A stretch of DNA of 64,000 bases from Candidatus Omnitrophota bacterium (GCA_023139575.1 JAGLNJ010000051.1:5926-69925), one strand, 5' to 3'; positions 8,286 through 27,126 are shown, counted from the stretch's first letter. The notes: a model not told the origin generated them from the letters alone. A program made the numbers and translations.

Positions 8286-8366
8286 TTTGTTTCCTTACTT
8301 TTTTACTTTAAAAAAGCCGCTCTGAAACCTCTTTTCTTAGTCCTCTTCTTCAGGGGGGCATTTTCC

Positions 8367-8879: not shown

Positions 8880-8901
8880 CTCTTATTCTTATTCGATTTG
8901 T

Positions 8902-13716: not shown

Positions 13717-13727
13717 ACCTTATTTTA

Positions 13728-14039
13728 TTAATCATAAGGACGGTCCTTTTGAAAAATTTCGCTTCTCACGCTCGGTTGAAAGGGCGCTGTTCCTCCCTTA
13801 TAAAAACGCGGACGCAGTTGATAAAGGATGCCGTCATAACTTGCCGGAACATCTTCTATTAAACCATCTCGATGCGCCGCCAACCTTCCGATCAAGTCCT
13901 TGCCCGACCATACAAAAAGTCTGATCGTTCCCAAAATGATCAAAACCGTTCCGAACAAGCTAAAACACAATTCTAAGGCAACCTGTGCCTTATTGCGACA
14001 TCGCTGTTCCTTTTTTCTTCTAAACAAAAAAATACGCAT
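13728..14039 (-). CDS. TadE-like pseudopilin (103 aa)
   Basis: N-terminus KAQVALELCFSLFGTVLIILGTIRLFVW matches the TadE-type N-terminal hydrophobic segment; small size; lies in the tad operon. Confidence 0.5.
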   Translation of the reverse strand: MRIFLFRRKKEQRCRNKAQVALELCFSLFGTVLIILGTIRLFVWSGKDLIGRLAAHRDGLIEDVPASYDGILYQLRPRFYKGGTAPFQPSVRSEIFQKDRPYD

Positions 14040-14048
14040 TCCGTCTCC

Positions 14049-15587
14049 TTACAAATTAGAGCCAGGCACTCTTGTAATCCATTGATGCCCCCGCTGATCA
14101 TGCACGCGGGAACGGACAACCAACAACATCGTTTCCAGATCAAGACACGTTAATTCAACGTTGGAGCCTTCATAACAATTGCCGCAAACCTCAACCGGGT
14201 TGGTCATGCCGAAAACACCATGAATAGTCGCAAAAGGAAGCCCTCCTGCCCCATATATAATAGTTTCGTCGGCTTCTTCCCAATTTACAGGAACACCGTT
14301 ACGGCAAAACCTCCCGGTATCGTTAGTTATTTTAAAAATCCTCTCTATAATATCAAGATTCTCCTGAATTAAAGTATGGCGTGTTTGACTGTTTTCCAAC
14401 TCATAAGCATTCGTTAACGCGCTTCCGTCTCCTTCAAGGCCGGTAAAAGAATACATTGTCATATCTGGCAGAAGACCAATCTTAATATAGGTTTGGGCAG
14501 GGTTTCGCAGCAAGAATATCTTAAGATCCATATCATCTTCGGCATTGTTTAAATCACCTTCTTGAGAATCCATAACTCTCAATTTTGTAACAACCCCATA
14601 TTGATCCGTTGACCAGTCAACAATACTTTCTTCTCTCAGATCCCCATCAACATCTATCAGTGTGTTAATCTGTTCGTCAGGTAATATCCCTCTTATCCCT
14701 TTATAAAAAGAGTCATCGAAAAACACATTTTTGTACTTCTTAAACTTGTCGTGGTTAACACCGGCCACCGGCATCCATTGCCATGCAAATTTACTTCGGG
14801 CAGCCGCAGTGGCTACATCAGGGGCACCGCCGCTAAAGTCCAAATCAAAACGATTCACTTCGCCAGCTTTAAAATCGTAAGGCTGGCTTTGATTGGCGAG
14901 CCTAGCAAAAAATATTGTACAGCCGACAATGCCAACACCGGGAAGAAACATGCATTGCGACTTATAACACGTACCATGAGGCGCTATGCTTTCCAAAGCA
15001 GGAACTGCAGCGTAATACGGGCTGCATTCCTGGAGGTTAACAACTCTTGTTCCTCCCGACCAGGTGTCCTGCCAGCTCACAGCGGCATTACCCGTGCCGG
15101 AAGGATAATTATAGCGGCGAAAAGCGGATAATGTAAATGGAAAACGCTGCCCGTTTATAAAAATATCCTGAACGGGAAGATTCCAATGCTCACAAATACC
15201 GTTTTCATTTGGGCATTCTACAGGATAAAACATAGCTTTAGTAAACGACGCGCTAGCTGATGCGACAAAAGGAATCCTGTCCCGAGTGCCTGTGGGTTGG
15301 GAAGCATCTGCCGACAACCTGTCTTCCAAAACCAATACTGACGCCGTATTCCGAGCTGCAGACGTCTGATAGGTTATGGTTCCATAGTTATATTTACCTT
15401 CTCCCGTGCGAAAAGACTCAATCATAGCCAGACGCATCGTCTTCAGGCTCTGATTCATCATTGAGCTGGACTGCAGGGCAGCCTTCACGATGAGCCCAAT
15501 AATAAAAATAACAATGGCTCCGAAAATGGCTAATTCGGTAGCTGATTGTGCTAATCTCAATTTTTTTTTCTTTGGGCTATTCAACAT
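14049..15587 (-). CDS. TadG/TadE-like large pseudopilin (512 aa)
   Basis: N-terminus KKKLRLAQSATELAIFGAIVIFIIGLIV (class-III-like A-Q-S-x-x-E-L plus a TM helix), followed by a large Cys-containing soluble domain. It lies immediately downstream of the pilin array. Confidence 0.55.
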   Translation of the reverse strand: MLNSPKKKKLRLAQSATELAIFGAIVIFIIGLIVKAALQSSSMMNQSLKTMRLAMIESFRTGEGKYNYGTITYQTSAARNTASVLVLEDRLSADASQPTGTRDRIPFVASASASFTKAMFYPVECPNENGICEHWNLPVQDIFINGQRFPFTLSAFRRYNYPSGTGNAAVSWQDTWSGGTRVVNLQECSPYYAAVPALESIAPHGTCYKSQCMFLPGVGIVGCTIFFARLANQSQPYDFKAGEVNRFDLDFSGGAPDVATAAARSKFAWQWMPVAGVNHDKFKKYKNVFFDDSFYKGIRGILPDEQINTLIDVDGDLREESIVDWSTDQYGVVTKLRVMDSQEGDLNNAEDDMDLKIFLLRNPAQTYIKIGLLPDMTMYSFTGLEGDGSALTNAYELENSQTRHTLIQENLDIIERIFKITNDTGRFCRNGVPVNWEEADETIIYGAGGLPFATIHGVFGMTNPVEVCGNCYEGSNVELTCLDLETMLLVVRSRVHDQRGHQWITRVPGSNL

Positions 15588-15614
15588 TTTTATATTAACT
15601 TCTCGGGTTGCTCT

Positions 15615-15944
15615 TTATGGAATTAACGATACGGATCCTGCCACGGACTGTGTCATATTCGCCGTATCAAGACGCAAAGTCCAATATCCCGGCTCGCTGT
15701 TAACAAGGTCTGGAACTGCTTCCGTATATGTTGTCGAATTGCCGGTCGTCGAATACGTCACCGCACCATTCATAAGCTCAGGATCATATTGATCGCCTAT
15801 CCCGTCAACGGCATCGCGCCACCTTCCCTGAATCCCTCTTTTAAAATAAATGCCGCCGACAAAAACAGCGGCCACAATAATCGTTGTCAACACAATATAC
15901 TCTGAAGCGCTTTGTCCCATCTTTTTTTTCATTCTAATGAGCAT
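15615..15944 (-). CDS. Flp-type prepilin paralog 7 (109 aa)
   Basis: MKKKMGQSASEYIVLTTIIVAAVFVGGI carries the G/QSxxEY class-III signal plus a TM helix. YFKRGIQGRWRDAVDGIGDQYDP is shared with paralog 4 and the 170-aa Cys-rich protein. RBS GGTGG lies upstream of the ATG at 15944. Confidence 0.7.
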   Translation of the reverse strand: MLIRMKKKMGQSASEYIVLTTIIVAAVFVGGIYFKRGIQGRWRDAVDGIGDQYDPELMNGAVTYSTTGNSTTYTEAVPDLVNSEPGYWTLRLDTANMTQSVAGSVSLIP

Positions 15945-15967
15945 TTTCCACCTTCTTTTTTCACCCT

Positions 15968-16318
15968 TTATAACGGATCCTTCTCGAGAAACCCCAAATT
16001 AGCATGCGTTTCTGTCATAACACTCTGCCCACGCATAATTGAATAAGTAGTCTCTCCCATATCTTCTGCTTTCGTTTTTGAGTCACTTAGCTGAATTTGC
16101 GCCGTTGAGTTAATCACTATCCCCATTTTTCCGCCAAGCTGTTCCGCCTCTTCTTGATTTCCCACTTGATCTGACATCATTTTTACCATGGCCTGCGCCG
16201 TTCTCTTGACCATTGGAGTCATAACCATTCCTATAGAAAATATAACGCCCAGCAAAAAGGTATATTCCAAAACTGTTTGCGCTTTTTTCTTTGATTGTTT
16301 GTTTTTGTATCTTATCAT
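15968..16318 (-). CDS. Flp-type prepilin paralog 6 (116 aa)
   Basis: KKKAQTVLEYTFLLGVIFSIGMVM; A at -1 of the putative cleavage site; hydrophobic helix. Confidence 0.6.
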   Translation of the reverse strand: MIRYKNKQSKKKAQTVLEYTFLLGVIFSIGMVMTPMVKRTAQAMVKMMSDQVGNQEEAEQLGGKMGIVINSTAQIQLSDSKTKAEDMGETTYSIMRGQSVMTETHANLGFLEKDPL

Positions 16319-16326
16319 AAATATAT

Positions 16327-16698
16327 TTAGTTAGCATACTTGGGCGCCAACTGATTAGTAAAAGTGTCCGTAGTTGAAGTGTGATCTATTTCAAAACGAA
16401 ACTCTTCAGCCAAGGTCGGAAACTGCTTTCGAATTATGTTACTTGCAACAACCCTCCTTGCCATTTGATTAACATAATATGGTTCGTATGAAAAATATCC
16501 AACTCCCTGGTAGTCGTCGCTGTCAAACTCCTCTTTTACTTCCTTGACCATGAAGAGGCGGACATCCCGTATTTTAGACTGAACAGCGCGGCGAAAATAT
16601 GTCGCCATAGACATAATAATGGCAACCACGAGAAAAAACATAATAGAATGTTGTATGGCCAAGCTTTGTCCGTTTTTATTTTTCAGTTGTTTAAGCAT
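16327..16698 (-). CDS. Flp/TadE-like pilin paralog 5 (123 aa, degenerate signal lacking Glu+5)
   Basis: NKNGQSLAIQHSIMFFLVVAIIMSMATYFRRAVQSKIR has G-Q-S but Q instead of E at +5; no obvious SD. Confidence 0.5.
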   Translation of the reverse strand: MLKQLKNKNGQSLAIQHSIMFFLVVAIIMSMATYFRRAVQSKIRDVRLFMVKEVKEEFDSDDYQGVGYFSYEPYYVNQMARRVVASNIIRKQFPTLAEEFRFEIDHTSTTDTFTNQLAPKYAN

Positions 16699-16764
16699 TA
16701 ATCTATAAATATTAGTATGAATATTAAATAATTAAAATAGAAAATTTGCTCTACCTCACAAAAT

Positions 16765-16807
16765 AAAGAATGGCTTACCTAAAATTCCCTCAAGTAAGCC
16801 ATTCTTT
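16765..16807 (-). terminator. Perfect 14-bp inverted repeat (intra-cluster hairpin/attenuator) between pilin paralogs 4 and 5
   Basis: AAAGAATGGCTTAC-N15-GTAAGCCATTCTTT. On the minus strand it is followed by ATTTTGTG, in the 156-nt gap between the pilin-4 stop and the pilin-5 start. Confidence 0.45.
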
Positions 16808-16853
16808 ATTTAACACATTAAACATTCCTTTTACTTAAACTAGGGCGATGAAA

Positions 16854-17174
16854 TTATCCCCAGAAAGGTTGCTCAGCGTTAATAATTTCCTGATTTGATG
16901 TAACTGTTGTAATCTCATCGGCTAGCAAAACTGATGAAGTTACTCCATCCTGAAACGTTTCTTGCGTACTTGCCGATGTAATTGTCATTTTAATTACATT
17001 TGTGTTTCCCGGAGCATACTGATCCCCGATGTCATCAGTAGCGCTACGCATACGACCTTGAATACCTCTTTTAATATAAACCTGTATAGATAAAAGAGCG
17101 CCTATCACGATGATAATCAAAACAGCATATTCGAGAGTGCTTTGCCCTTTCATCTTTCTTAAAAATTTAAACAT
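16854..17174 (-). CDS. Flp-type prepilin paralog 4 (106 aa from the ATG at 17174)
   Basis: MFKFLRKMKGQSTLEYAVLIIIVIGALLSI plus YIKRGIQGRMRSATDDIGDQYAP. AAGGAGG RBS lies 8 nt upstream of the ATG at 17174, while the ORF track starts 10 codons earlier. Confidence 0.7.
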   Translation of the reverse strand: MFKFLRKMKGQSTLEYAVLIIIVIGALLSIQVYIKRGIQGRMRSATDDIGDQYAPGNTNVIKMTITSASTQETFQDGVTSSVLLADEITTVTSNQEIINAEQPFWG

Positions 17175-17233
17175 TGATATATCCTCCTTATCAAATATTA
17201 GCATTTTAACGCTTTACCTAGCAAAGACTCACC

Positions 17234-17611
17234 TTAAATACCGTCAATCAAGCCGAGAGTCGTATCATACTGTGATACCTGAGAACCGCCAGTTCCACGA
17301 GTTCTGGTGTCATCGACGTTGTAAGCGATCATCGCCGAAAGATCAGCTCTTTGCTTTTGCAGTTCTGATTCGGTACTTGCCGTGGTAACAGCATAATTTG
17401 TTTCCAAGTAATACGGTTCGTATTGGTTAGTAGTGTCTCCGAGACCTGCTGTTTCGTTCGTTAAATATGTAGAAGCAGCGCGAATTCTGGCTTGGAGAGT
17501 TCTTTGCGCATAAGTCTGCATAGCAATTACAGCCGCGACGACCAAAGAAATCAAAAGGGCGTATTCAGCTGTCTGCTGTGCTTTTTTATTTTTAATGATT
17601 CTTTTTAACAT
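17234..17611 (-). CDS. Flp-type prepilin paralog 3 (125 aa)
   Basis: MLKRIIKNKKAQQTAEYALLISLVVAAVIAM; GGAGGT RBS upstream of the ATG at 17611. Confidence 0.65.
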   Translation of the reverse strand: MLKRIIKNKKAQQTAEYALLISLVVAAVIAMQTYAQRTLQARIRAASTYLTNETAGLGDTTNQYEPYYLETNYAVTTASTESELQKQRADLSAMIAYNVDDTRTRGTGGSQVSQYDTTLGLIDGI

Positions 17612-17667
17612 TTATTGTACCTCCGTAAACGTTATTTATAGTCTATCTTCATTTTTGTTAACTCCCA

Positions 17668-17874
17668 TTATGGAGCGACTGGACGGGAATCTGACAAGCG
17701 CTGAGCCATATCATCCATGTCATCTGTGCTGTCCGTCAGTGTCGTTTGAAGCTGTGTTTGGAAAAGTCCACCCGGACCTAAGAAAACAATAAGAATGGCA
17801 ACAACACCAGCTACAAGAATGATGTACTCTAAGGTGCTCTGCCCTTTTTCCCTTCTGTTAAGCTTTTGTAACAT
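17668..17874 (-). CDS. Flp-type prepilin paralog 2 (68 aa from the ATG at 17874)
   Basis: MLQKLNRREKGQSTLEYIILVAGVVAILIVFLG; AAGGAGG RBS upstream of 17874. The ORF track extends to 17934, but that 5' extension has no RBS. Confidence 0.7.
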   Translation of the reverse strand: MLQKLNRREKGQSTLEYIILVAGVVAILIVFLGPGGLFQTQLQTTLTDSTDDMDDMAQRLSDSRPVAP

Positions 17875-17935
17875 TATATTTTCCTCCTTACTTACTAAGT
17901 CTTTCTGCTTTTTTAGGCGTTTCCAAAAAAACACC

Positions 17936-18100
17936 TTAATTTGCGCGAAATCCTTTTTGAATTACCTGTTGAGTTGCTTGAACTGAACGAAACACGTAAG
18001 TACTCATTGCCATCATGGCAGCGGCAATTACAGCAACGACGAGAGCGTATTCGATAAAATTTTGACCTGCTTTACTTTTAATTTTCTTTATAAGCCTCAT
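17936..18100 (-). CDS. Flp-type prepilin paralog 1 (54 aa from the ATG at 18100; classic short Flp)
   Basis: MRLIKKIKSKAGQNFIEYALVVAVIAAAMMAMSTYVF; GAAGGTG RBS 3 nt upstream of the ATG at 18100. The track ORF extends to 18148. Confidence 0.7.
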   Translation of the reverse strand: MRLIKKIKSKAGQNFIEYALVVAVIAAAMMAMSTYVFRSVQATQQVIQKGFRAN

Positions 18101-18282
18101 CGCACCTTCACTTTCCGTGTACAGATAATTCGTGCCCAACTTAAGCAACTTAAAGTGGATTTTTATTGGGCAACTCTATTGCCGGCACGATCATGCCGAC
18201 ATCCGCATAACAAAAATCATTATGCAAGATTGAACCCCGTTAAAAACGGGAAGAAAGCCTTAATCAATTATGAAATAGCAAT

Positions 18283-18308
18283 AAAAAAGCCTCCAAGTGT
18301 TTTGGAGA
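18283..18308 (-). terminator. Rho-independent terminator downstream of the 629-aa hypothetical gene, upstream of the pilin array promoter region
   Basis: Stem GCCTCCAA-gtgtt-TTGGAG(ac) with a minus-strand T-tract (plus AAAAAA 18283-18288). Confidence 0.5.
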
Positions 18309-18526
18309 CTAGTGTGTTCTGTCTGTATTATCTTGTGTTATAGCTGTTTTAGAGTAAAAGTACCCTTGGTTGAACCGTATATAAAAAAGCCTCATGGCTT
18401 CTCCTTAGCTTAGTTACTTTATTTCACAAAACTTTACTTCGGGTGAATAAATTATAACATATATCTAAGATAACTGTCAAGGCGATACGCTCAAATAATC
18501 GTAGAAATAACAAAAATATATAAAAA

Positions 18527-20416
18527 TCATATAATGCCCAATAAAAGTTTTTTTCCTTCCAACATAATTTTTTGCTCACTAACCCTTCTTACCGCAAAAT
18601 TTAATTTTTCTATTTTCTCCCTTGGCAAGCTGTCTCTTTTAAACGCTATTTTTATGTAGTTTGCTGTTTCTTGGAAATGTCCCGGCAAAGCATAAAACCC
18701 GCTCAGCATTTCTTCCCTTGTCAATGCGGCGCATGAAAGAGGGAAGTACCTGTATTGGCAAAAAATATTTAATTGGTCCAGCAGGGTTTGCAGAATTTCA
18801 TTAAAATTATAAGAACTTGAAATAAAACGAGTTAAGTCATAATCTAAACTTATCTGTTGCTCATAGAAGGCTTTCTTTTCTTCAAATGCTTTTTTGATGG
18901 CCCCTTCTTCCCTTCCCGCATTCTGCAAATATCCCTTGAACCCTTCAGATGCGGCTGAGGCCTGTAATATAATGCCGAGAAGCGGATCCGCAAATGCTTG
19001 GCTATCATCAATATTATTAGTAATTACCGCCAGAAAAGGTTCTTTTTCAACATTTTTTGAAACAAAATAAACCTTTACCATCGTAGCACTGTCACTCATA
19101 ACAAAAGAGTTTAGATGGATCGAGCTTTCTCTATAATAATACTTCTCGTCTCCTTGAATTTCATGATAATGCTGTGACAGTTTGCAGGCCTTTAGTATCA
19201 TTTGAAACGAAGTCTGACCCGGCAACAAACCACAGACCAACGCCTTTTTTTTGCCAGGAATAAAAGGAAAAGAGGAAATTTCTTCATTTTTAAAATTGCG
19301 TAATACAATTTTGTCCAATCTGACTTTTGATGTTTTGTCTACCGCTTGGCACAAATGTCCAAAAATATCAATATTGCCATCATTGATAAAATCAATATTC
19401 CATGTTTGGACATTCTCAATAATTTCAGAATTGATCCGAGACACTGCCGAGTACAGTGAGGAGGCTAATCCTATCGAAGGCGGTTCTTTCCAAATTGACG
19501 TAAAAGACCCATCTAAATTAATTTGCTTTCCATCGCTTAAATAAACACTTATTATATTAACTTCCTTAAATAGTTGGGGCAACTCAATGGCAACCGCCAG
19601 CTTCAACTTGTTAAAATCGCATTCCTCTTTAATAGCCTCAATGGCAGACAAAGCAGCTTTGTTGTACAAAACATTATTTAATCTCCAAATTCCAGAAAAA
19701 GCACTTTGCTCAATATTTTGTGTATCCCTTAACCCAAACATTTCCAGAAATAATAAAATATCTGGATTGTTTAATCTGACGGATTTTGCCCACTCAAAAT
19801 TACTGGAAAACAATTGATTCAGCAGAGAGTTTTCTGTTAATTCATTAATTGCAGCCTTCAAAAAAACACTTCCCAAATTTGCCAAAGGAACAGATTTCTC
19901 TTCTTTTGTTTCCTGAATGGACATTAAGCCGGCTTTGTCCTTAGTAGCCTTTTCTCTAAGAGTTTCCTTTGGTAATTTTATTTTGGACATTCTAGACATT
20001 TCAGGTGGAGCCGTATCCTCCATAATAAGCGTCCGCTTCTCTTGCGGAAACAGTTCTTTAATTTTTGACTCCGGGATTTGAAATTTTTTGGAAGATTTTT
20101 TTGCTACCGACCTCCTCCCAACCGGGCTACTCAGACTGGAACTTTTGAAGATAGCGTTGATAGAGGATTTAGAAACTTTAATGTCAAAATTCTTTTGAAC
20201 AGTATCGACAAGCCTTCTGCAGCTTATATCAGGTTCTTTAGTTTTACAAGCTACAATAAAGACTACAACTTCTTTTTTTAATTTATGTATAACACCCATA
20301 GTTTTACAAAATGGACAATTGAACTTTCTAAGTATATCACAAAACAAGGCTTGGAAAAAGCGCCTTAGTTGATTTTTCATCTGCCTTAACTTTAATGTCC
20401 AGAAAAATATCAACAT
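18527..20416 (-). CDS. Hypothetical protein (629 aa), soluble, embedded in the tad locus; possible N-terminal HTH-like segment
   Basis: Long ORF with no recognisable catalytic motifs. The N-terminal region ...VACKTKEPDISCRRLVDTVQKNFDIKVSKSSINAIF looks HTH-like. It is bounded by its own terminator. Confidence 0.5.
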   Translation of the reverse strand: MLIFFWTLKLRQMKNQLRRFFQALFCDILRKFNCPFCKTMGVIHKLKKEVVVFIVACKTKEPDISCRRLVDTVQKNFDIKVSKSSINAIFKSSSLSSPVGRRSVAKKSSKKFQIPESKIKELFPQEKRTLIMEDTAPPEMSRMSKIKLPKETLREKATKDKAGLMSIQETKEEKSVPLANLGSVFLKAAINELTENSLLNQLFSSNFEWAKSVRLNNPDILLFLEMFGLRDTQNIEQSAFSGIWRLNNVLYNKAALSAIEAIKEECDFNKLKLAVAIELPQLFKEVNIISVYLSDGKQINLDGSFTSIWKEPPSIGLASSLYSAVSRINSEIIENVQTWNIDFINDGNIDIFGHLCQAVDKTSKVRLDKIVLRNFKNEEISSFPFIPGKKKALVCGLLPGQTSFQMILKACKLSQHYHEIQGDEKYYYRESSIHLNSFVMSDSATMVKVYFVSKNVEKEPFLAVITNNIDDSQAFADPLLGIILQASAASEGFKGYLQNAGREEGAIKKAFEEKKAFYEQQISLDYDLTRFISSSYNFNEILQTLLDQLNIFCQYRYFPLSCAALTREEMLSGFYALPGHFQETANYIKIAFKRDSLPREKIEKLNFAVRRVSEQKIMLEGKKLLLGII

Positions 20417-20476
20417 TTAAATATTTAATCTTTAAAAAAAGATGTATACTTTAAATAGTCACATAATTATCATTCC

Positions 20477-20734
20477 TTGGAAAAAGGATTCTTTATGCTT
20501 AAATGTCCCTATTGCTGCGAAGAACTAACATCCGAAGTTAATCGCTGCGTTCACTGCTCCCAATTTCTCATTGATGATATTATTCATTCAGATTTTCCCA
20601 GCCTGGACAAAAAGAAATGTGTTTTTTGCGGCAAAAAAATACTAAGTCGAGCTAAAATATGCAAGCACTGCCACAAATGGCTTGATGAATTAGATCAAGC
20701 GGTTCGTGATGTAGATCCTGATGATTTGGTTTGA
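20477..20734 (+). CDS. Small double zinc-ribbon protein (85 aa, four CxxC pairs)
   Basis: CPYCC...CVHC...CVFC...CKHC. It is the only plus-strand gene inside the minus-strand tad block. Confidence 0.45.
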   Translation: MEKGFFMLKCPYCCEELTSEVNRCVHCSQFLIDDIIHSDFPSLDKKKCVFCGKKILSRAKICKHCHKWLDELDQAVRDVDPDDLV

Positions 20735-20749
20735 TTCACTCCCGAAAGG

Positions 20750-21094
20750 CTATGCTTCTTTTATCAACTCATCCCCTATTTGAGTTTGCGTTTCATCAAT
20801 CGTCCCCTCTGGCAATTCAATACAATAATTTGCGCGAATAAAATAGGGACCCATCCTATAAGGTTTGATCCTTTTTACAAGACCGATAACTTTATTATTT
20901 TTGTCTACAAAAATAACATCGATTGTGAAACGCATAAAAAGCATGTGGATGGAGCGGCATTGTGTAATGATAAAGCCGTGCCCTTGCGGTAAATTGTCGC
21001 GCCCTAATAAACCAACAAGACGTGATAGCGCTGTATCCGCCAGCTCAGTTTGCTGAGAGATCGTGGTGTTTCGTGTTTTATTGATTATTTTCAC
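20750..21094 (-). CDS. DUF192 (COG1430) family protein
   Basis: LSRLVGLLGRDNLPQGHGFII..CRSIHMLFMRFTIDVIFVD...CIELPEGT matches the DUF192 pattern (GLMGR...GMLF...IHMFFMRFPIDVIF...ELPAG). Its start overlaps the ATPase stop by 4 nt. Confidence 0.65.
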   Translation of the reverse strand: MKIINKTRNTTISQQTELADTALSRLVGLLGRDNLPQGHGFIITQCRSIHMLFMRFTIDVIFVDKNNKVIGLVKRIKPYRMGPYFIRANYCIELPEGTIDETQTQIGDELIKEA

Positions 21095-23262
21095 AAGGCA
21101 GGAACTGTTTCCGTAAAGATTTTTTTCTCTAACGAAAGACCTATACGGTTAAAATCTTCCATGAACTTTGGGACATATCCTGTGGGTTTAAAGTCGCCGA
21201 GTATTTTCCCGTCTTCTGTTTTCCTTTTTTGGTCAAAGACAAAGACATCGCGCAAATCAAGCTGATGATCCTTTTCTATTCCGGCAACCTCGGTAATTCC
21301 TGTTATCTTACGAGTCCCGTCAGAGGTTCGGGCAACATGAACAATAATATCAATGGCTGAGGAAACCATTTCATTGATAGCCCGGATAGGCAATTCGATA
21401 CCGCTTAAGAGGATCATTGAACTCATACGAACCAAAACATCATGGCATGAATTCGCGTGCAGCGTCGTCATAGAGCCGTCATGACCCGTGTTCATAGCCT
21501 GAAGCATATCCAGGACCTCACGGCCGCGGCACTCCCCGATGATAATGCGGTCCGGGCGCATACGCAGCGAATTAATAAACAGATCTCGAATAGTGACCTC
21601 GCCGCGACCTTCAACGTTTGCCGGGCGGGATTCCAGTCGTCCCCAATGGGTTTTCTTTAACCGTAATTCAGCGGCGTCTTCTATCGATATAATTCTTTCA
21701 TTGTCAGGGATGAAATGAGAGAGAACATTTAAAAGCGTCGTTTTCCCGGCGCCGGTTCCTCCAGAAACGATAATATTTTTTCTTCCAACCACACAGGCCT
21801 CAAGAAAAGTAGCCATGTTTTTAGAAAAACTTTTGTACTTAAGCAGCAAGTCGGCCACGCTCAAGCGCTCAACACCAAATTTTCGAATGGTAATCATGGG
21901 GCCGGTCAAAGAAAGAGGGGGAATAATAGCGTTGAAGCGTGAGCCGTCCGGAAGACGAGCGTCGACCATCGGAACAGATTCGTCAATACGTCTACCGAGA
22001 GGAGCGATAATACGGTCAATAATCGCGCGCATCTGCTGATCAGAAACAAACTTCCTGTTAGTTAAAATAATCTTGCCGCCCTTTTCTATATACAGATCGT
22101 TTTTGCTGTTAACCATAATATCGGTAACCTCCGGATCCGCAAGAAACTCTTCCAAAGCCCCCAATCCTAAAGCCTCATCAACGATCTCCTTAACAATCCT
22201 CGCCCGCTCTTCATGCGAAGAAATCAGCGCCCCTTTTTCTTCCATAAGGAGGTTGCTGACAATTTTCTTGGCGGACTCTTTCAGCTCTAAGGCTTTTTGG
22301 GGATCCCCCAACATCTCCGGCGTCAAGTCTTCCACATGCAGGCGATCCACAAGCTTCTCGTGAATCTTCTTTTTAAGAGCGACAATCTCATCTTCCTCTT
22401 TCACAAAACCATCGCCACCGGCAGGCATGTTCTGTGATGATATGCCGAATTTCTGCCAGAATTCACCCGGCTTATCCATTCCTTCGGTCATGCGAACCTT
22501 AGCCACTTCCGCGCCCTGCACAAAAAGGTCTTCCTTTTTGAGGTCTGCGATCATTTGCTTAAAGGCTTCCGCTACCTTCGAACGAGGGCTGTCGATAACA
22601 CAGGGGACGCCTCGATTCAAAGCCATACCCACGGATCTTCCATCGGAAGGAATCCTCGCAAATATTTCGCAGCCTAATACATTGCGGACCTCCTGCCAGG
22701 CAACGCCTCCCCGGCTTTCCGATCGGTTTAAGACCAGCTTGATCATCTTAAAAGGGAAATGCAGGCTTTGCAGCACCTCTAGACACCATTTGATTTGATA
22801 TACAGCTAAAACATCAGGCGTGGCCACCAAAAATATCAAGTTGGAATGATCCAAAGCAGTCAAAAGGGTTTCGCTAAAAGCCTTCCCCGCGTCTATGATG
22901 ATATAATCATAGATCGTAGAGACCGTCTTGAAAAAAGGTTTGATGTTTTCTGCTGTAATATGACCGATCTGTTTAGAATGAATAACGGCCGGCAAAAAAT
23001 CCAGACCGCAGGAATGAGAAATGACAAATTTCTTAATAATGTCCGGACTGTCGGCCTTCTCTATTTCCGGCAAAAGATGAACCAGGGCGTGGCGGGGAAC
23101 AAGGCTTAACATTCTGGACATGTCTTGCCCTGCTTGAAAATCCAAATCAAGAAGCAACACCCTTTTACCCGACACGGCTAAAGAGGTTGCCAAGTTAACG
23201 GCGGCAAAAGTCTTTCCAACACCGCCCTTATTACTAAATATAGTTATGGTTCGAGCTTCCAT
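21091..23262 (-). CDS. Fusion protein: N-terminal ParA/MinD-type (TadZ/CpaE-like) ATPase domain + C-terminal CpaF/TadA secretion ATPase
   Basis: Residues 1-250 begin ITIFSNKGGVGKTFAAVNLATSLA (deviant Walker A KGGxGKT, MinD/ParA fold). Residues ~380-723 are CpaF-like: IVSGGTGAGKTTLLN (Walker A), GRLESRPANVEGRGEVTIRDLFINSLRMRPDRIIIGECRG, LQAMNTGHDGSMTTLHANS. Confidence 0.8.
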   Translation of the reverse strand: MEARTITIFSNKGGVGKTFAAVNLATSLAVSGKRVLLLDLDFQAGQDMSRMLSLVPRHALVHLLPEIEKADSPDIIKKFVISHSCGLDFLPAVIHSKQIGHITAENIKPFFKTVSTIYDYIIIDAGKAFSETLLTALDHSNLIFLVATPDVLAVYQIKWCLEVLQSLHFPFKMIKLVLNRSESRGGVAWQEVRNVLGCEIFARIPSDGRSVGMALNRGVPCVIDSPRSKVAEAFKQMIADLKKEDLFVQGAEVAKVRMTEGMDKPGEFWQKFGISSQNMPAGGDGFVKEEDEIVALKKKIHEKLVDRLHVEDLTPEMLGDPQKALELKESAKKIVSNLLMEEKGALISSHEERARIVKEIVDEALGLGALEEFLADPEVTDIMVNSKNDLYIEKGGKIILTNRKFVSDQQMRAIIDRIIAPLGRRIDESVPMVDARLPDGSRFNAIIPPLSLTGPMITIRKFGVERLSVADLLLKYKSFSKNMATFLEACVVGRKNIIVSGGTGAGKTTLLNVLSHFIPDNERIISIEDAAELRLKKTHWGRLESRPANVEGRGEVTIRDLFINSLRMRPDRIIIGECRGREVLDMLQAMNTGHDGSMTTLHANSCHDVLVRMSSMILLSGIELPIRAINEMVSSAIDIIVHVARTSDGTRKITGITEVAGIEKDHQLDLRDVFVFDQKRKTEDGKILGDFKPTGYVPKFMEDFNRIGLSLEKKIFTETVPAL

Positions 23263-23389: not shown

Positions 23390-25270
23390 CTATATCTTCT
23401 TGATTGTTTCAATCGTCGGAGAACATTCTAAACCCAGCTCATCTAAAATGGCTTCTTGACTATAGACAATGGGAATCGTAACAACCAGTTCTTCCAGCTC
23501 TACTTCCGAAGGAAAAGGATCAAAAGGCGCCAAAATCTGCGCAGTATTTATAGCGTCTTTATCAAAAATATCATACCCGGAAGATTCTTTTATTGTCGCG
23601 TCCATTAAGGATCCATCACTCAATATGGTTAAAGAAAGCTTAACTGTTCCTTGCCATCCTTCTTCTTTAGCCTTATATGGAAATGATATCGTTCGCGAAA
23701 TATTTTGTTGTATCGTCTGTACATACTCTGTGATAGCTTTAGAAATGTTTTCATCATCAATGATTTCTTCCGCTAAAGCTGTTTCTTCGTCGGTAACAAC
23801 GTCTATGGCTTCTTCACCCATTGTTTCGGGCTCTTTACCTTCTTCAGCGGCGGCTGTCTTATCCATTCTCTCTTCCAAAAAGGACGCTATCTCCTCTTCG
23901 TATTCATCAACAGCGGGTTCCTCAATGACGATCTCACCTTCTTCCAGTTTTTCGACGTCTTCTGATAAATCTGCCAACTCTTCCTCTAGTTCATATAACA
24001 TCCCGTCATCTTCTACAGCTTTTTCTTCCGACGGCAAAGACATCTGCCGAAAAATACGCGGAGTCAATGTAATAACAACTTCTTGCTCTTGATTTGCCGT
24101 AGGTGTTATCTTAGATCTGAACAGCGCTCCGACAATTGGTATGGCGCTGATAAAGGGAACTCGTTTAACCTCTTCGCTTTCATTGTGCTTAATCAATCCG
24201 GCAATAACAACCGTCTGCCCGTCATTCAACAGCAGTCGGGTATCGGCAGATCGTGTCGTGAAGGCAACATCATCGCCTACAGCATTAGCATTATCAATAT
24301 CCCTGATGGCAACAGACAAAAGGATATCGATTTTTCCATTTTTCACTTCCGGCGTTACCGTCAAATCAATGCCGTACTCCTTAAAAGTCACATTTTCTTG
24401 AACGCTACCAGCCACATTACCCGTAGTCGTCGTTCGAATCGGAATTTCCCCGCCGACTAAGAAAGAAGCGTCTTCACCATCGACCACAACAATGCTGGGC
24501 TTGGACAAAATTCGCCCTTTCCCTTCCTTAATAAGGGCTTTTACGGTAGCCTGTATTATTGAAGTACGATTAATGTCGCCGATTTTGAACAAATTTTCTA
24601 CATTGTTTCCATCAAACTCCGGCAAGGTCTCTTGATAAACAAGATTTAGAGAATCCGCACTATCTGTTGCCCAATCGAATCCTAATTCTTTCGTAAGCGT
24701 TGTGTTCAACTCAGAAATCTGTACGTCAATCTGAATAAGGTCGCCTTCTACTCTAACCATATCAATGACTTGCTCACCAAAATCGTCAAGGATGAGCTCC
24801 AGCATTTCCTGCTCGCTTTTAATAACAGTCCCTGTAGCTACGACCTTTCCTTCATATGGGTTTGGCGCCAATTTAACGTCCTTGATTTCAGCCGCATCCA
24901 GCAGGCTCTGTAAACGGGAAACAATTGACCCCATGTCTTCTTCGAAAACGCGAGCAATTATAGTTCTTTTCCCGTATTCATCCCAGATGAAAATCGGCGT
25001 CTCCCCAATAGCCTGACCGACAAGAAGCACTTCATTGACATCCGCATTAGCGATATCTACAATGCCCGGTTGGCTGATGGCAATCCTTGTAAGAGAATAC
25101 ACTTTTAAAGTGACCAGATCCCCTTGATAAAGGAAGACATCTCTTTTTTCCAAAGTATCAATAACGTCTTGCGTTTGGGCATGAGCGTTAAACGGAAACA
25201 CTGCCACTGTCATAACAATAAAAACGATTTGTAAAAATTTTTTGCTTTTTGTTTTTTTTGTGATCATCAT
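23390..25270 (-). CDS. cpaC: CpaC/RcpA-type secretin with a polyacidic linker and a C-terminal TonB_C-like domain
   Basis: Signal peptide. Secretin core GRILSKPSIVVVDGEDASFLVGGEIPI...VPFISAIPIVGALFRS. Then a ~90-aa Glu-rich linker (EEELADLSEDVEKLEEGEIVIEEPAVDEYEEE...). Then ISFPYKAKEEGWQGTVKLSLTILSDGSLMDATIKESSGYDIFDKDAINTAQILAPFDPFP, matching the TonB C-terminal pattern (YP..A...G.eG.V.v.f.I..DG.v.d..v..SSG...lD.aAl.A....F.P). Confidence 0.8.
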   Translation of the reverse strand: MMITKKTKSKKFLQIVFIVMTVAVFPFNAHAQTQDVIDTLEKRDVFLYQGDLVTLKVYSLTRIAISQPGIVDIANADVNEVLLVGQAIGETPIFIWDEYGKRTIIARVFEEDMGSIVSRLQSLLDAAEIKDVKLAPNPYEGKVVATGTVIKSEQEMLELILDDFGEQVIDMVRVEGDLIQIDVQISELNTTLTKELGFDWATDSADSLNLVYQETLPEFDGNNVENLFKIGDINRTSIIQATVKALIKEGKGRILSKPSIVVVDGEDASFLVGGEIPIRTTTTGNVAGSVQENVTFKEYGIDLTVTPEVKNGKIDILLSVAIRDIDNANAVGDDVAFTTRSADTRLLLNDGQTVVIAGLIKHNESEEVKRVPFISAIPIVGALFRSKITPTANQEQEVVITLTPRIFRQMSLPSEEKAVEDDGMLYELEEELADLSEDVEKLEEGEIVIEEPAVDEYEEEIASFLEERMDKTAAAEEGKEPETMGEEAIDVVTDEETALAEEIIDDENISKAITEYVQTIQQNISRTISFPYKAKEEGWQGTVKLSLTILSDGSLMDATIKESSGYDIFDKDAINTAQILAPFDPFPSEVELEELVVTIPIVYSQEAILDELGLECSPTIETIKKI

Positions 25271-25346: not shown

Positions 25347-26144
25347 CTAATTTCTAACGCCACCTCTATAAATATCAATAAAAGTGGTTGGAGCGTCTCC
25401 GCCTGTTGTAACCGCCTCTAAAGGCATTTGAGTGTGTGGAACCAATAATTCCGTTCCTTGTTTTTCAAAAACATATTCTGATAAAGCTCCCCAAGAGGCT
25501 GCCTGCATAATTTCTGTTTCTGTTTCAGCAGGGGCTCTTAAAATCAATTGCATTTTTCCGTTTTTTTCAATAAATGACATAAGGCTGGCTTCTTCCGGCG
25601 TCAAGGCAAAGGTTATATTTAATGACCTGGCTTCTTGTTGCTTTTCATATCCTCCCGGAGCCTGCAAATTTGTCCCCACCGCTAAAATCTGGGCATTTTG
25701 GAAGACCATTGAAGTAATCGTGTTTTTGCCTGTCTTGTGTTGAATCGGTATTTCCATATGCGCCAAAACATCAACATAATCTCCAGGATTGATAAGGCCT
25801 CCGACCGCCGATAGAGAGTCTATCATAACCGTATACGCTCTCTTACCCGCAGGAGTACGTAAAGCCAATGAAGATTTTGGCACTGAGGGCGTCTGGGATT
25901 GAGAATCTTGCCCGGAACCAGCTATCACAACCTGACGGCTAGCTAATTGTTTGATTTCTTTACGCAAGGTTTCTAAGTCTCGCTGTAAAGGTTTGATCTG
26001 TTTGGTTTCATATTCTTGAGAAAGCTTGGCTGTTGCCTTTTTGATATTTCCTTCAATATGATTCCCTGTAAGAATAGCCGCAACCGCACCTAGCCCCACC
26101 GCACATGCAATAATAGCAAACTGTCTTTTGGCTTCTAAATTCAT
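25347..26144 (-). CDS. cpaB: Flp pilus assembly protein CpaB/RcpC (SAF domain)
   Basis: N-terminal TM anchor. YTVMIDSLSAVGGLINPGDYVDVLAHMEIP...FQNAQILAVG is typical of CpaB. It lies immediately upstream of the secretin. Confidence 0.75.
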   Translation of the reverse strand: MNLEAKRQFAIIACAVGLGAVAAILTGNHIEGNIKKATAKLSQEYETKQIKPLQRDLETLRKEIKQLASRQVVIAGSGQDSQSQTPSVPKSSLALRTPAGKRAYTVMIDSLSAVGGLINPGDYVDVLAHMEIPIQHKTGKNTITSMVFQNAQILAVGTNLQAPGGYEKQQEARSLNITFALTPEEASLMSFIEKNGKMQLILRAPAETETEIMQAASWGALSEYVFEKQGTELLVPHTQMPLEAVTTGGDAPTTFIDIYRGGVRN

Positions 26145-26148
26145 ATAC

Positions 26149-27126
26149 CTACTCCTCTAATAGTTTATCGTTAATATTCACGACCGTTTTATTTCGAAGC
26201 TCTTGAAGAGTTTCGTTGATTGTCTGTCTCTGCTTAAAAATCGTCAAACCTTCAACAATTTGCTCTTTCACGTCCTCAAAAGCCTTCTGCTCTCCACCTT
26301 TTTTCTCTTCCAGTTTAACAATATAAAAACCTTCCGGCCCTTTGAATACAGCGCTAACTTCGCCTGTTTCTAAAGCAGCGACGACTTTTCTCATTTTAGG
26401 GAAATCAAAAATAGCTTTGAACCCCATATCTCCTTTTTTCCAGGCAGACTTTGCCTTAGAGTGGGTCTTCACCATTTCTTGAAAATCTACGTCCTTATAT
26501 AGCTCAATGCGGATACTTTTTGCCGTTTCTTCATCTTTCACAACAATTTCCCGAACGCGCCATTCAACAGGATCAACAAATTCCGTTTTATTGTTTTCGT
26601 AATATCCCTCAGCTTCTTCTTCTGTCGCTTTTGCTTCTTTTACGATCTGGTCAGCCATTTCGCGAACGATAAGGGTGCGGCGGAACTCTTCCACAGCATC
26701 AACAATATCTTTTTTTTCTGCTATCCCGGTTTTTTCAGCCTCATGAACTATTAGTTGCTGATTGATAAGCTCTTCTAAAACCAGCTTGTTCTGATCAACA
26801 TTCTTTGTATCATAATCGGGCACCAGCTCTTTAAGAGCTTTAAGCCGTTCATTAAATTCTTCTATAGAAATCGCCCAACTGCCTACTGAGGCTAAGACAT
26901 TTTTTGCCATCGGCTTTGAGGCTTGATTAAATTTTTTTGATTTTATACCGGGAGGGTTGGTATTTGCCTGAGAAACTTTATTGCTTTGTGCCACTTCCGG
27001 GGCTGGTGGTTTTTTCTTGCCCTTTAGCTTATCGGTTAGCTCTGTAATCTTATCGCAACCTTGTGTGCTTGCCAGAATTAAGGTAAAAACACAAAAAAAA
27101 CCAATTTTTTGTTTAAATGCTGTCAC
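26149..27126 (-). CDS. PpiC-type peptidyl-prolyl cis-trans isomerase lipoprotein (PrsA/SurA-like)
   Basis: Lipobox LILASTQGC. Parvulin-like region ...WRVREIVVKDEETAKSI...GDMGF...FKGPEGFYIVKLEEKKG. It is the first gene of the operon, 4 nt before cpaB. Confidence 0.65.
   Translation of the reverse strand: MTAFKQKIGFFCVFTLILASTQGCDKITELTDKLKGKKKPPAPEVAQSNKVSQANTNPPGIKSKKFNQASKPMAKNVLASVGSWAISIEEFNERLKALKELVPDYDTKNVDQNKLVLEELINQQLIVHEAEKTGIAEKKDIVDAVEEFRRTLIVREMADQIVKEAKATEEEAEGYYENNKTEFVDPVEWRVREIVVKDEETAKSIRIELYKDVDFQEMVKTHSKAKSAWKKGDMGFKAIFDFPKMRKVVAALETGEVSAVFKGPEGFYIVKLEEKKGGEQKAFEDVKEQIVEGLTIFKQRQTINETLQELRNKTVVNINDKLLEE

Follow-up and report, generated by a model that had tools for sequence, protein, structure and literature searches.

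A conserved TonB-type C-terminal head on the Tad-like secretin of Omnitrophota

Secretins and TonB/TolA heads are both well-studied modules of the cell envelope that, to our knowledge, have so far been assigned only to opposite membranes. In a 64-kb stretch of DNA from a Candidatus Omnitrophota bacterium (64,000 nucleotides, analysed as a whole and hereafter the window), an outer-membrane pore itself includes a TonB-type head, which lies at the position where pilotins classically dock and is as strongly conserved as the pore throughout an uncultivated phylum. This raises the question of what such a head might do on a secretin. The surrounding Tad-like locus adjoins giant genes and, according to an earlier proposal, serves Omnitrophota for attachment or predation, so that a conserved and previously unnoticed head matters for any model of this machine, and the identity of its ligand bears on the assembly or anchoring of pilotin-less secretins.

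A secretin and a TonB-type head in one gene

The original prediction, made from sequence, described a single gene encoding a Tad/CpaC-type secretin with an acidic linker and a TonB_C domain but no lipobox, and this overall architecture is fully supported. The product is 100% identical to a public protein (P0001) listed at NCBI as "TonB family protein [Candidatus Omnitrophica bacterium]", and it is organized as follows (all on the minus strand, listed from the N-terminus after the gene itself):

23390..25270 (-), whole secretin::TonB_C gene, 626 aa plus stop codon (ORF listing)
25178..25270 (-), signal peptide, residues 1-31 (MMITKKTKSKKFLQIVFIVMTVAVFPFNAHA), with neither Cys nor lipobox (sequence reading; AF2 helix 10-24)
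24944..25165 (-), N-terminal beta-sandwich domain, residues 36-109, T2SS-T3SS_pil_N, RcpA N-domain type (PF13629 at 59-101, E 4e-8; AF2 strands 36-109, pLDDT ~97)
24707..24934 (-), second periplasmic alpha/beta domain, residues 113-188, N1-like (AF2 secondary structure, pLDDT 95-97; NCBIfam GspD, PilQ and SctC alignments begin at ~166-180)
24050..24538 (-), Secretin pore domain, residues 245-407 (Pfam PF00263, E 3.5e-41; Foldseek matches are secretins)
23756..24049 (-), disordered acidic tether, residues 408-505 (composition; AF2 pLDDT 35-63)
23462..23755 (-), TonB/TolA-type C-terminal domain, residues 506-603, i.e., helix 506-527 plus an alpha-beta-beta-alpha-beta core (Pfam PF03544, TIGR01352, AF2, Foldseek)
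23393..23461 (-), variable C-terminal tail, residues 604-626 (low pLDDT)

The secretin::TonB_C gene is one gene encoding one polypeptide. The CpaC/RcpA-type core, first placed at ~230-410, corresponds to a Secretin match covering the full profile, and the N-terminal domain is of the T2SS-T3SS_pil_N type (33.2 bits vs. a cut-off of 23), with no indication of the N0/AMIN/STN type of GspD and PilQ. The NCBIfam equivalog models for GspD, PilQ, MshL and SctC all score far below their cut-offs, and 8jvb and RcpA 8odn are the closest sequences with a solved structure (RcpA, one of the two best matches, E 1.8e-25). The only cysteine of the protein is residue 616, so the secretin has no lipobox, and the N-terminus carries an AHA/Q sequence resembling a signal-peptidase I site (predicted), in agreement with the signal peptide originally described.

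The C-terminal region matches TonB_C at residues 529-603 (PF03544, E 1e-15, 58.4 bits vs. a cut-off of 24.6) as well as NCBIfam tonB_Cterm (TIGR01352, E 9e-14, 51.5 bits vs. 27.1), and residues 506-603 are modelled by AlphaFold with a pLDDT of 94-98. When this model was compared to the PDB with Foldseek, the best 25 matches were all TonB/TolA/HasB/FusB C-terminal domains (H. pylori TonB CTD, E 2e-6), TonB CTDs leading the list with target-normalised TM-scores of 0.72-0.77, and the matches included TonB heads bound to their transporters (9dc4_T, rmsd 1.2 A; 2grx_C, 1.9 A; 2gsk_B, 2.5 A). A phmmer search of PDB sequences retrieved 6sly (E 2e-6). TolA domain III (1LR0) was a weaker structural match than TonB (E 1e-4, TM 0.55), the full-length TolA equivalog TIGR02794 scored 24.3 bits against an NCBIfam cut-off of 59.45, and the NCBIfam AgmX/PglI tail matched the secretin weakly (E 0.006, below cut-off). 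With the TonB and TolA CTDs (H. pylori 5LW8/6SLY; E. coli 2GRX/2GSK; TolA 1LR0) the modelled head shares the same alpha-beta-beta-alpha-beta fold, a (Y/F)P motif, a G-x-V strand, an SSG loop and a terminal edge strand, the latter (VTIPIVY, residues 594-603) being nearly invariant in the family, and its identity to the H. pylori TonB-CTD is 31% with the preceding helix included. Structural modelling thus demonstrates a TonB-CTD fold for the head. The domain is therefore real as proposed, but it occupies residues 506-603 instead of the last ~80, with a tail of low conservation behind it (23 aa here; family median 12 aa, identity 0.28). E-values, a confident fold and conservation in hundreds of homologs together exclude chance as the origin of the fusion.

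What precedes the head differs from TonB and TolA, in which an N-terminal helix in the inner membrane contacts ExbBD or TolQR and the spacer that reaches outward is Pro-rich or helical. The Omnitrophota fusion has no TonB-like N-terminal transmembrane anchor for ExbB/ExbD, a cleavable signal peptide and secretin domains standing there instead; its anchor is the outer-membrane pore, its polarity is reversed, and no stator genes lie nearby. The proline-rich TonB spacer is likewise absent (the linker here is 2-3% Pro and 35-43% D/E; family Pro range 0-16%). Residues 418-507 form the most acidic 90-residue window (43% D/E, consistent with the >40% over ~90 residues first noted), and the net charge of residues 410-505 is ~-33. 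The description "poly-Glu linker" holds insofar as the region is Glu/Asp-rich, but it is no homopolymer, and the acidity is limited to this protein and a few relatives. Across the family, linkers range from 51 to 254 aa with a pairwise identity of 0.12, a D/E content of 6-44% and a net charge per residue of -0.46 to +0.11; the shortest have ~28 flexible residues, while many relatives have long, K/E-rich linkers of a TolA-like character (to 254 aa), one of these proteins being named "TolA" by NCBI. Since acidity, length and sequence are all unconserved and no DNA tandem repeat was found in the linker, we rejected the acidic linker as a functional feature.

A standard fusion in a conserved Tad-like locus

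The fusion was next followed in the 120 best homologs and in the loci of 80 species-representative genomes, 79 of which have a complete secretin gene. Overall, 118/120 homologs carry it, and it forms one ORF in 78/79 complete loci. The carriers are nearly all Omnitrophota with a common gene order, and at least 90 further 50%-identity clusters also carry the fusion. Both homologs lacking TonB_C lie on short contigs, one being cut by the contig end (P0114, checked) and the other located on a 2.2-kb contig (P0072). Judging by these sequences, the fusion is the standard form of the Tad-type secretin across Omnitrophota. Pairwise identity averages 0.56 in TonB_C and 0.57 in the secretin core but 0.12 in the linker; these alignments demonstrate a purifying selection on the head as strong as that on the pore domain, with a tether free to vary while the head is conserved.

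An assembly or frameshift error joining a separate tonB-like gene to the secretin, for which the one split locus (L046, secretin and TonB_C in overlapping ORFs of different frames) could speak, has a negligible probability and is refuted as an explanation of the fusion, the ORF being uninterrupted here, in all other complete species-level loci and in the 118 protein clusters, which come from several sources, while P0114 lacks TonB_C only through its contig end and each locus has exactly one TonB_C ORF. The single gene originally claimed therefore stands against an overlapping-gene alternative. No second TonB_C protein was found in the flanks of the 80 loci (up to 10 kb per side). An exhaustive search also returned TonB_C matches of 100-300 aa; these are mostly pieces of the same secretins and were rejected as free TonB proteins.

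The gene lies in a minus-strand cluster with the following partners:

26149..27126 (-), PpiC/SurA-like peptidyl-prolyl isomerase lipoprotein (Pfam Rotamase_2, Rotamase, SurA_N; lipobox Cys conserved)
25347..26144 (-), CpaB/RcpC alignment-complex protein with TM helix, coiled-coil stalk, RcpC domain and conserved C-terminal hairpin (Pfam RcpC E 3e-23; conservation profile)
21091..23262 (-), fused TadZ-like (ParA/MinD) and CpaF/TadA (T2SSE) ATPase (Pfam AAA_31/CbiA/ParA at 4-240, T2SSE at 366-645)
6478..21094 (-), remaining Tad-like locus: DUF192, a conserved 629-aa protein, two Flp pilins, ~8 pilin-like proteins (including 512 aa and 1604 aa), TadB, TadC (Pfam DUF192, T2SSF x2, Flp_Fap, Class_IIIsignal; N-terminal pilin-like motifs)

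The order PpiC lipoprotein, CpaB, secretin, TadZ::CpaF, DUF192, pilins, TadB/C is kept in the 80 loci and in a divergent lineage. CpaB/RcpC is found in 79/80 loci and the TadZ::CpaF ATPase in 76/80, while the PpiC lipoprotein gene, 4 bp upstream of cpaB here, lies directly upstream of cpaB in 69/80 loci and is present in the divergent locus L084 as well. From the PpiC lipoprotein to DUF192 (20400-27600), the minus strand showed no terminator-like site.

In its signal peptide, T2SS-T3SS_pil_N and Secretin domains, the protein resembles the Tad secretins RcpA and CpaC (P. aeruginosa RcpA-TadD, 8ODN; PMC10499894), as do its neighbours in one minus-strand cluster (cpaB/rcpC, a tadZ-like domain, cpaF/tadA, tadB, tadC and flp pilins). 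The locus differs from classical ones in the fusion of the ATPase to TadZ and in the absence of a prepilin peptidase gene. RcpA stops a few residues past the pore domain and uses its final four residues to bind the TPR pilotin TadD (PMC10499894), whereas the Omnitrophota secretin continues for ~220 residues (tether, TonB_C and tail) where this short tip is absent, in a locus lacking a TadD homolog. At the other end of the protein, RcpC touches the RcpA N-domain through strand completion (PMC12307814). The extension is also comparable to the S-domains of T2SS/T3SS secretins with their pilotins (GspD-AspS, PulD-PulS), which likewise extend past the pore on the periplasmic side of the outer membrane and dock a partner (PMC10499894), but S-domains are short peptides or helices bound by that partner, whereas here the secretin itself holds a folded receptor-type domain on a long tether.

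The same locus corresponds to the "type II secretion-like" locus upstream of Omnitrophota giant genes (10.1101/2023.11.21.568195) and to the Omnitrophota Tad complex (PMC10066038), with which it shares a gspD/rcpA-type secretin, rcpC, a Rotamase_2 PPIase (already noted as a conserved part of the locus; 10.1101/2023.11.21.568195), gspE/gspF-type and class III signal-peptide genes, and then a very large ORF. The term "TonB" occurs 0 times in these two papers, neither of which mentions a TonB domain on the secretin, and we found no description of a secretin-TonB_C fusion in the literature searched, whose coverage was incomplete. A 2026 Omnitrophota preprint lists two giant-gene flank genes with "TonB-domain content" under import signals, with no link to a secretin; these two may be the secretin described here. 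Database names are similarly misleading ("TonB family protein" or "TolA" at NCBI, "CpaC" at JGI), so that surveys miss the secretin or miscount TonB systems.

Possible roles of the head

The reading we favour, with somewhat less than even confidence, is that of a tethered partner-capture or anchoring head near the outer membrane, which would stand in place of the pilotin-binding tip and would not be a canonical energy transducer. In this reading, the secretin is the outer-membrane pore of the Tad-like pilus or secretion apparatus that Omnitrophota conserve, with a disordered, highly charged tether and a TonB/TolA-type head in place of the classical short tip. After ring assembly, one head per subunit, or ~13-14 per ring if the ring resembles that of RcpA, would hang from the periplasmic rim of the pore just below the outer membrane, each acting as a passive capture or anchoring module. 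Beta-strand augmentation is, as far as we know, the only experimentally established binding mode of TonB/TolA C-terminal domains, and it would most likely be by this mode that the head captures an extended strand from another envelope protein, which would position or stabilise the secretin or help it to assemble. Because some orthologs have only ~28 flexible linker residues, the partner is expected no more than a few nanometres from the outer membrane. As candidates we consider the co-transcribed lipoprotein of the PpiC type, the top of the CpaB ring and other outer-membrane proteins. Anchoring or partner binding, one of the alternatives first put forward for the domain, is consistent with all findings.

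Several candidate traces of such a partner were considered. The mature N-terminal motif of the PpiC lipoprotein (C-D/E-x-I/L...EYF) is only a weak lead as the ligand of the head, being missing in several loci that keep TonB_C. No charge complementarity was seen between the tethers of the two proteins, acidic in the secretin and Lys-rich in the PpiC lipoprotein (rho 0.03, p 0.81). Secretin linker length correlated with that of PpiC (+0.49) and with the CpaB stalk (-0.66) in raw comparisons, but neither correlation remained significant in sister-pair phylogenetic contrasts (p 0.11 and 0.24, respectively), so both may reflect clade structure only. At the N-terminus of the mature secretin, the sequence QDVIDTL resembles a TonB box, but with only ~50% conservation ("dv.D") it was unconvincing.

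It is also possible, although we lean against it, that the heads clamp the secretin ring and the outer membrane to peptidoglycan or another periplasmic polymer, and so hold them to the sacculus against the pull of a retractile or predatory pilus. The analogy is with the periplasmic binding modules, attached to secretin rings or placed around them, that fix these rings in the envelope elsewhere, i.e., PilQ AMIN domains, the LysM protein TsaP around PilQ (PDB 6VE2) and GspAB/ExeAB. Among the matches listed for the secretin in both sequence and Foldseek searches is 6ve2. These modules differ from the head in fold and in position, AMIN being N-terminal and TsaP a separate protein, whereas the head is C-terminal on the secretin. 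Head copy number varies as in wall-binding modules (1-2 on secretins, 2-6 on OEP proteins, 4 on a Plug protein), and the same module recurs on unrelated outer-membrane proteins, which points to a ligand of a generic kind and not to a partner particular to Tad. The shortest linkers would reach the wall and not the inner membrane, and no AMIN, LysM, SPOR or OmpA-like domain was found by Pfam in the secretin or its operon neighbours. E. coli TonB is said, in an older report, to contain a LysM-like motif. However, peptidoglycan binding by TonB CTDs is not established, and a 2024 review assigns wall binding to ExbD, not TonB (PMC11658791); the net acidic charge of the head in 96% of the family (mean -5), next to a strongly acidic linker, also counts weakly against a binder of anionic polymers. 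For Tad systems, no wall-binding or wall-cleaving component is known (PMC12307814), a point in favour of the wall-anchor reading.

A role in assembly only, the head being a built-in substitute for a pilotin that docks the monomer transiently to an outer-membrane lipoprotein or chaperone (the PpiC-like lipoprotein, BAM/Lol) and has no function once the ring is assembled, seems to us rather improbable. The original prediction had noted no apparent pilotin, and indeed no TadD-type TPR lipoprotein was found in the 64-kb window, but it had overlooked the conserved PpiC/SurA-like lipoprotein, which is an obvious assembly-factor candidate. The tight co-conservation of this lipoprotein PPIase with the fused secretin, divergent lineage included, favours an assembly role, as does the precedent of RcpA, which binds TadD by its C-terminus (PMC10499894). 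Against it, the N-terminal motif of the PpiC lipoprotein is not universal, and a pilotin gene could lie elsewhere in the genome, beyond the 64 kb of the window. In E. coli, Asp at +2 of lipoproteins signals inner-membrane retention. The PpiC lipoprotein has Asp at this position, which also speaks against docking at the outer membrane, although the E. coli rule may not hold here. The assembly-only reading overlaps with partner capture, from which it differs by timing alone.

Still less probable, and in our estimation quite unlikely, is an energy-coupled role with TonB polarity reversed, in which the heads would reach an inner-membrane stator of the ExbBD, TolQR or MotAB type, or a TonB-like protein, so that the proton-motive force gates the secretin or powers export of the pilus or of effectors. 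The functionally characterised TonB_C proteins that we know of all belong to force-transducing systems, which favours this idea. Outside nutrient import, TonB_C heads occur in the Myxococcus gliding proteins AgmX/GltJ and PglI/GltG, and in P. aeruginosa TonB3/PocAB is needed for pilus localisation; AgmX/GltJ, PglI/GltG and TonB3 are, however, inner-membrane anchored and stator-driven, whereas the Omnitrophota head belongs to an outer-membrane pore. The long K/E-rich, TolA-like linkers of many relatives, the NCBI name "TolA" and the weak full-length TolA score (tolA_full, 24 bits) would also fit. Yet the secretin has neither a TM anchor nor an ExbB/D-interaction region, its machine has its own ATPase, and the flanks of the 80 loci offer no second TonB_C protein. 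The exbB/exbD genes sought among the neighbours, and likewise tolQ/tolR and a TonB-dependent receptor, were absent from the annotated ORFs of the 64-kb window. The ~28-residue flexible linkers of some relatives are too short to span the periplasm. Canonical energy coupling, the other alternative of the original prediction, is therefore unlikely, given the lack of a TonB anchor and Pro-rich spacer, the lack of exbB, exbD and receptor genes in 64 kb, and shortest linkers that fall short of the inner membrane; the favoured capture head would accordingly not transduce the proton-motive force in the TonB sense.

Tandem heads on secretins and other outer-membrane proteins

Two TonB_C copies occur in 16/118 relatives, the second at the position of the tail. 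Beyond the secretins, TonB_C arrays were observed as 2-6 tandem heads on TolC-like OEP proteins and as 4 heads on a Plug-domain protein. Such tandem heads count against the capture model, the pattern being commoner in polymer-binding modules (e.g., peptidoglycan) than in 1:1 peptide binders.

A more speculative idea, to which we give little weight, is that TonB_C heads serve as a general-purpose tether on Omnitrophota outer-membrane proteins (1-2 copies on the Tad secretin, 2-6 on TolC-like proteins and 4 on the Plug protein), either as a novel fastening of outer-membrane machines to the wall or to a shared periplasmic scaffold, or as a TonB system of reversed polarity with the head on the outer-membrane component and the "box" on the partner. 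If so, either version would be new, and in the Tad machine the tether would enable a predatory or parasitic cell of ultra-small size to bear or pass on the forces of the pilus. At least the six-copy OEP protein comes from an Omnitrophota MAG.

Architecture and fold of the secretin

As originally predicted, the gene at 23390..25270 (minus strand, ATG start) encodes a protein of 626 aa, in which three Pfam domains score above their curated cut-offs:

Domains of the secretin::TonB_C protein (23390..25270, minus strand; Pfam)
Residues 59-101: T2SS-T3SS_pil_N (PF13629), E 4e-8
Residues 245-407: Secretin (PF00263), full profile, E 3.5e-41
Residues 529-603: TonB_C (PF03544), E 1e-15, 58.4 bits against a cut-off of 24.6

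The C-terminus is also matched by the NCBIfam model tonB_Cterm (TIGR01352, E 9e-14), and none of the NCBIfam equivalog models for GspD, PilQ, MshL and SctC reaches its cut-off. A classical signal peptide, ending in AHA followed by Q, opens the protein, which has no lipobox (the sole Cys is residue 616), again as predicted. Pfam, NCBIfam and residue composition thus confirm the proposed succession of secretin, acidic linker and TonB_C domain. The linker, described in the original prediction as poly-Glu, is indeed strongly acidic (43% Asp+Glu in the most acidic 90-residue window, 418-507; net charge of about -33 over residues 410-505), but its composition is not that of a homopolymer, and no tandem repeat encoding it was found in the DNA.

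An AlphaFold2 run of the full secretin, based on a 100-sequence family alignment, gave pLDDT values of ~90-98 for the N-domains and pore, a disordered linker with short helices (residues 408-505, pLDDT 35-63), and a compact unit at residues 506-603 made of a helix followed by an alpha-beta-beta-alpha-beta arrangement (pLDDT 94-98), whose fold was the same when residues 500-626 were modelled separately. All 25 best Foldseek matches of this head in the PDB are C-terminal domains of TonB, TolA, HasB or FusB, the top one being the H. pylori TonB-CTD (E 2e-6, 31% identity over 103 aligned columns), and the model superposes at 1.2-2.5 Å on transporter-complexed TonB heads (9dc4_T, 2grx_C, 2gsk_B, 6i97_D). 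Since a sequence search of the PDB independently recovered H. pylori TonB (E 2e-6), both approaches lead to TonB heads, and the anticipated TonB-like fold is borne out. The models show a Tad secretin whose C-terminal part is a disordered tether bearing a genuine TonB-CTD fold.

Conservation of the fusion across Omnitrophota

A public MAG protein (P0001), named "TonB family protein [Candidatus Omnitrophica bacterium]" at NCBI, is 100% identical to the secretin. Among the 120 best homologs (41-57% identity), PF13629, PF00263 and PF03544 occur together in 118; the other two lie on short contigs, and the one checked ends at the contig end. In a species-level scan (one genome per GTDB species), 546 candidates encoded relatives; the 80 loci listed from it are almost all labelled Omnitrophota or unresolved PVC. 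In 79 of these 80, the match to the query reaches at least residue 603 (L078, truncated at a contig end, does not), and 78 of the 79 loci with a complete secretin gene encode the fusion as a single ORF. The same extension is thus present in orthologous secretins, and the alternative raised at the outset, that the 3' end might belong to a separate overlapping gene, does not hold. With the last 127 residues as query, an exhaustive phmmer search of 1.84 billion cluster representatives matched 280 clusters (E<=1e-10); among the 139 newly listed representatives, at least 90 have a secretin domain as well, and most of the short matches are fragments of secretin::TonB_C proteins.

Only at locus L046 (856-3166) are the secretin and TonB_C parts found in two overlapping ORFs in different frames; the split is a frameshift inside the linker, and could be either an assembly error or a genuine linker split. 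Some MAGs with the fusion are labelled Planctomycetales, Phycisphaerae, Elusimicrobia or even Bathyarchaeia, with identical synteny in the loci examined. Family members are named "TonB family protein" or "cell envelope integrity protein TolA" at NCBI and "pilus assembly protein CpaC" at JGI (P0001, P0053, P0007 and others).

Strong purifying selection acts on the head, which is as well conserved as the pore:

Mean pairwise identity in the family
TonB_C core: 0.56
Secretin pore: 0.57
Linker: 0.12

Family linkers range from 51 to 254 aa and from -0.46 to +0.11 in net charge per residue, the secretin studied here being among the five most acidic of 100. Linker charge and length vary while pore and head are kept; the conserved design is therefore a pore, any flexible charged tether and a head, and poly-Glu is not a design feature. 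Two TonB_C copies follow the secretin in 16 of 118 close family members and in 10 further cluster representatives (e.g., P0002, P0003, P0021, the 1091-aa P0196, and the secretin of locus L084).

Genomic setting of the Tad locus

The secretin cluster lies in the chromosome origin region, with dnaA, dnaN, dciA, gyrB and gyrA upstream; near 38 kb the GC skew reverses, consistent with an oriC there. The Tad locus lies just downstream of these genes (28199-38171), and a position downstream of gyrA is found in all 32 related loci whose flank extends that far. On the minus strand, the order is a PpiC/SurA-like PPIase lipoprotein, CpaB/RcpC, the secretin, a fused TadZ-like::CpaF ATPase, DUF192, a conserved 629-aa protein, two Flp pilins with about eight pilin-like proteins, TadB and TadC. 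This order is kept in essentially all 80 loci, and its core also at L084, from a more divergent lineage with two TonB_C copies on the secretin.

Several of these genes have unusual features of their own (all on the minus strand). The PpiC/SurA-like lipoprotein (26149-27126) lies 4 bp upstream of cpaB and has a conserved lipobox Cys with Asp/Glu at +2; many orthologs carry a short C-D/E-x-I/L-x3-4-EYF motif, after which comes a long tether rich in Pro, Ala and Lys. The CpaB/RcpC homolog (25347-26144) has a TM helix, a Q/E/K-rich coiled-coil-like stalk (about residues 30-70) and an RcpC domain, with a conserved C-terminal hairpin motif, kPxIqIFrGG; it has no SAF match, and the divergent L084 homolog a weak one. 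The ATPase (21091-23262) combines a ParA/MinD domain (residues 4-240) with a CpaF/TadA T2SSE domain (366-645), and is fused in 76 of 80 loci, L084 having two such genes in tandem. The 629-aa protein (18527-20416) matches no Pfam family (a sub-threshold HTH_32 match only), shows no evident N-terminal signal peptide or TM helix, and is conserved in 56 of 80 loci, where DUF192 precedes it and the flp genes follow. The pilin repertoire (8367-18148) is unusually large, with two Flp-like genes (70 and 88 aa) and about eight more whose products have pilin-like N-termini (109-170 aa), among which are 512-aa and 1604-aa proteins without Pfam matches; no prepilin peptidase gene (tadV/cpaA) was seen in the locus. 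The frame directly downstream of tadC (2-5593) stays open for at least 1864 aa, has a Peptidase_C39-like domain (residues 221-307, E 1e-8) and runs off the left window end; it probably belongs to the very large proteins that have been described beside this secretion locus in Omnitrophota. About 35 kb from the Tad locus, on the plus strand, 59870-60259 encodes a small PilZ-domain protein (E 1e-14); pilZ genes have been reported downstream of giant genes (10.1101/2023.11.21.568195).

As predicted, the 64 kb hold no TadD-like TPR lipoprotein that could be a separate pilotin. The exbB/exbD genes which the original prediction suggested seeking nearby are absent from the window, as are tolQ/tolR and any TonB-dependent receptor, and each of the 80 genomes has exactly one TonB_C ORF at the locus.

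Possible roles of the TonB-type heads

By domains and context, the protein belongs to the Tad (RcpA/CpaC) secretin class, but it lacks the short pilotin-binding tip of Tad secretins. With TonB it shares the C-terminal domain alone, having no TonB membrane anchor, Pro-rich spacer or exbBD context, and should therefore not be filed as TonB or TolA despite its NCBI names. The Tad locus itself is already known, described as an Omnitrophota Tad complex (PMC10066038) and as a "type II secretion-like" system upstream of giant genes (10.1101/2023.11.21.568195); "TonB" is absent from both texts, and a 2026 preprint lists two "TonB-domain" flank genes with no connection drawn to the secretin. The fusion is visible in precomputed domain tables, and no paper describing or interpreting it was found in the literature searched, whose coverage is incomplete. 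It represents a conserved oddity, easy to test, in a machine presumed central to how an uncultivated phylum lives.

TonB and TolA heads bind partners by adding an extended strand to the beta3 edge, as exemplified by the PDB complexes matched here. The secretin C-terminus sits at the outer membrane on its periplasmic face, where pilotins dock (PMC10499894), and RcpC forms a periplasmic alignment ring which touches the RcpA N-domain by strand completion (PMC12307814). It is tempting to speculate that the heads, one per ring subunit (two in 16/118 relatives), would hang from the pore rim and capture an envelope partner, and that this capture would anchor, position or help assemble the secretin in place of the pilotin-binding tip. 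Such a partner-capture or anchoring module is the reading we tentatively favor, at somewhat less than even confidence. Since some orthologs have only about 28 flexible residues from pore to head, a partner close to the outer membrane is expected, and an inner-membrane stator is disfavored. The PpiC lipoprotein is a candidate secretin chaperone or head ligand. Its conserved N-terminal motif is at most a weak lead as the ligand, not being universal, and its Lys-rich tether shows no charge complementarity with the secretin tether. Tether lengths correlate between secretin and PpiC (+0.49) and between secretin and CpaB stalk (-0.66), but both correlations lost significance in sister-pair contrasts. 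Conservation is only weak at the mature N-terminus of the secretin.

The main rival, possible but rather unlikely in our estimation, is that the heads bind peptidoglycan directly and anchor the secretin to the wall. The most relevant evidence comes from tandem TonB_C arrays on other outer-membrane proteins: TolC-like OEP proteins (PF02321) have 2, 3 and 6 N-terminal copies among P0246, P0194 and P0264 (loci L082, L083, L085), a Plug-domain protein (P0266) has four, and some proteins consist solely of 4-5 copies. Variable copy number and attachment to unrelated carriers are the behavior of wall-binding modules. However, binding to the wall is not generally accepted for TonB heads, and the head is net acidic in 96% of family members; a 2024 review assigns wall binding to ExbD (PMC11658791). 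Less likely still is a role in assembly only, as a pilotin substitute possibly acting with the co-conserved PpiC lipoprotein, a reading which overlaps the capture module and differs from it solely in timing. Energy coupling through the heads, an option in the original prediction, appears quite improbable given the missing anchor, the missing stator genes (64 kb) and the short linkers in the family. An artefactual fusion is excluded by the single-ORF counts (78/79 complete loci, 118/120 best homologs).

If TonB_C serves as a general outer-membrane tether in Omnitrophota, the fusion would have a larger significance. Of the proteins with tandem arrays, the cluster of P0128 and P0264 is placed in an Omnitrophota MAG by source naming, P0264 sharing its cluster with a protein assigned at NCBI to an Omnitrophica MAG. 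At L082, roughly 1 kb separates the TonB_C-bearing OEP gene from an oppositely oriented gene encoding at least 2294 aa. In P0266 (891 aa, JGI), CarboxypepD_reg and TonB-dependent-receptor Plug domains precede the TonB_C copies, with intervening sequence too short for a 22-strand barrel; the domain that usually carries the TonB box is here fused to the heads by which it is normally bound.
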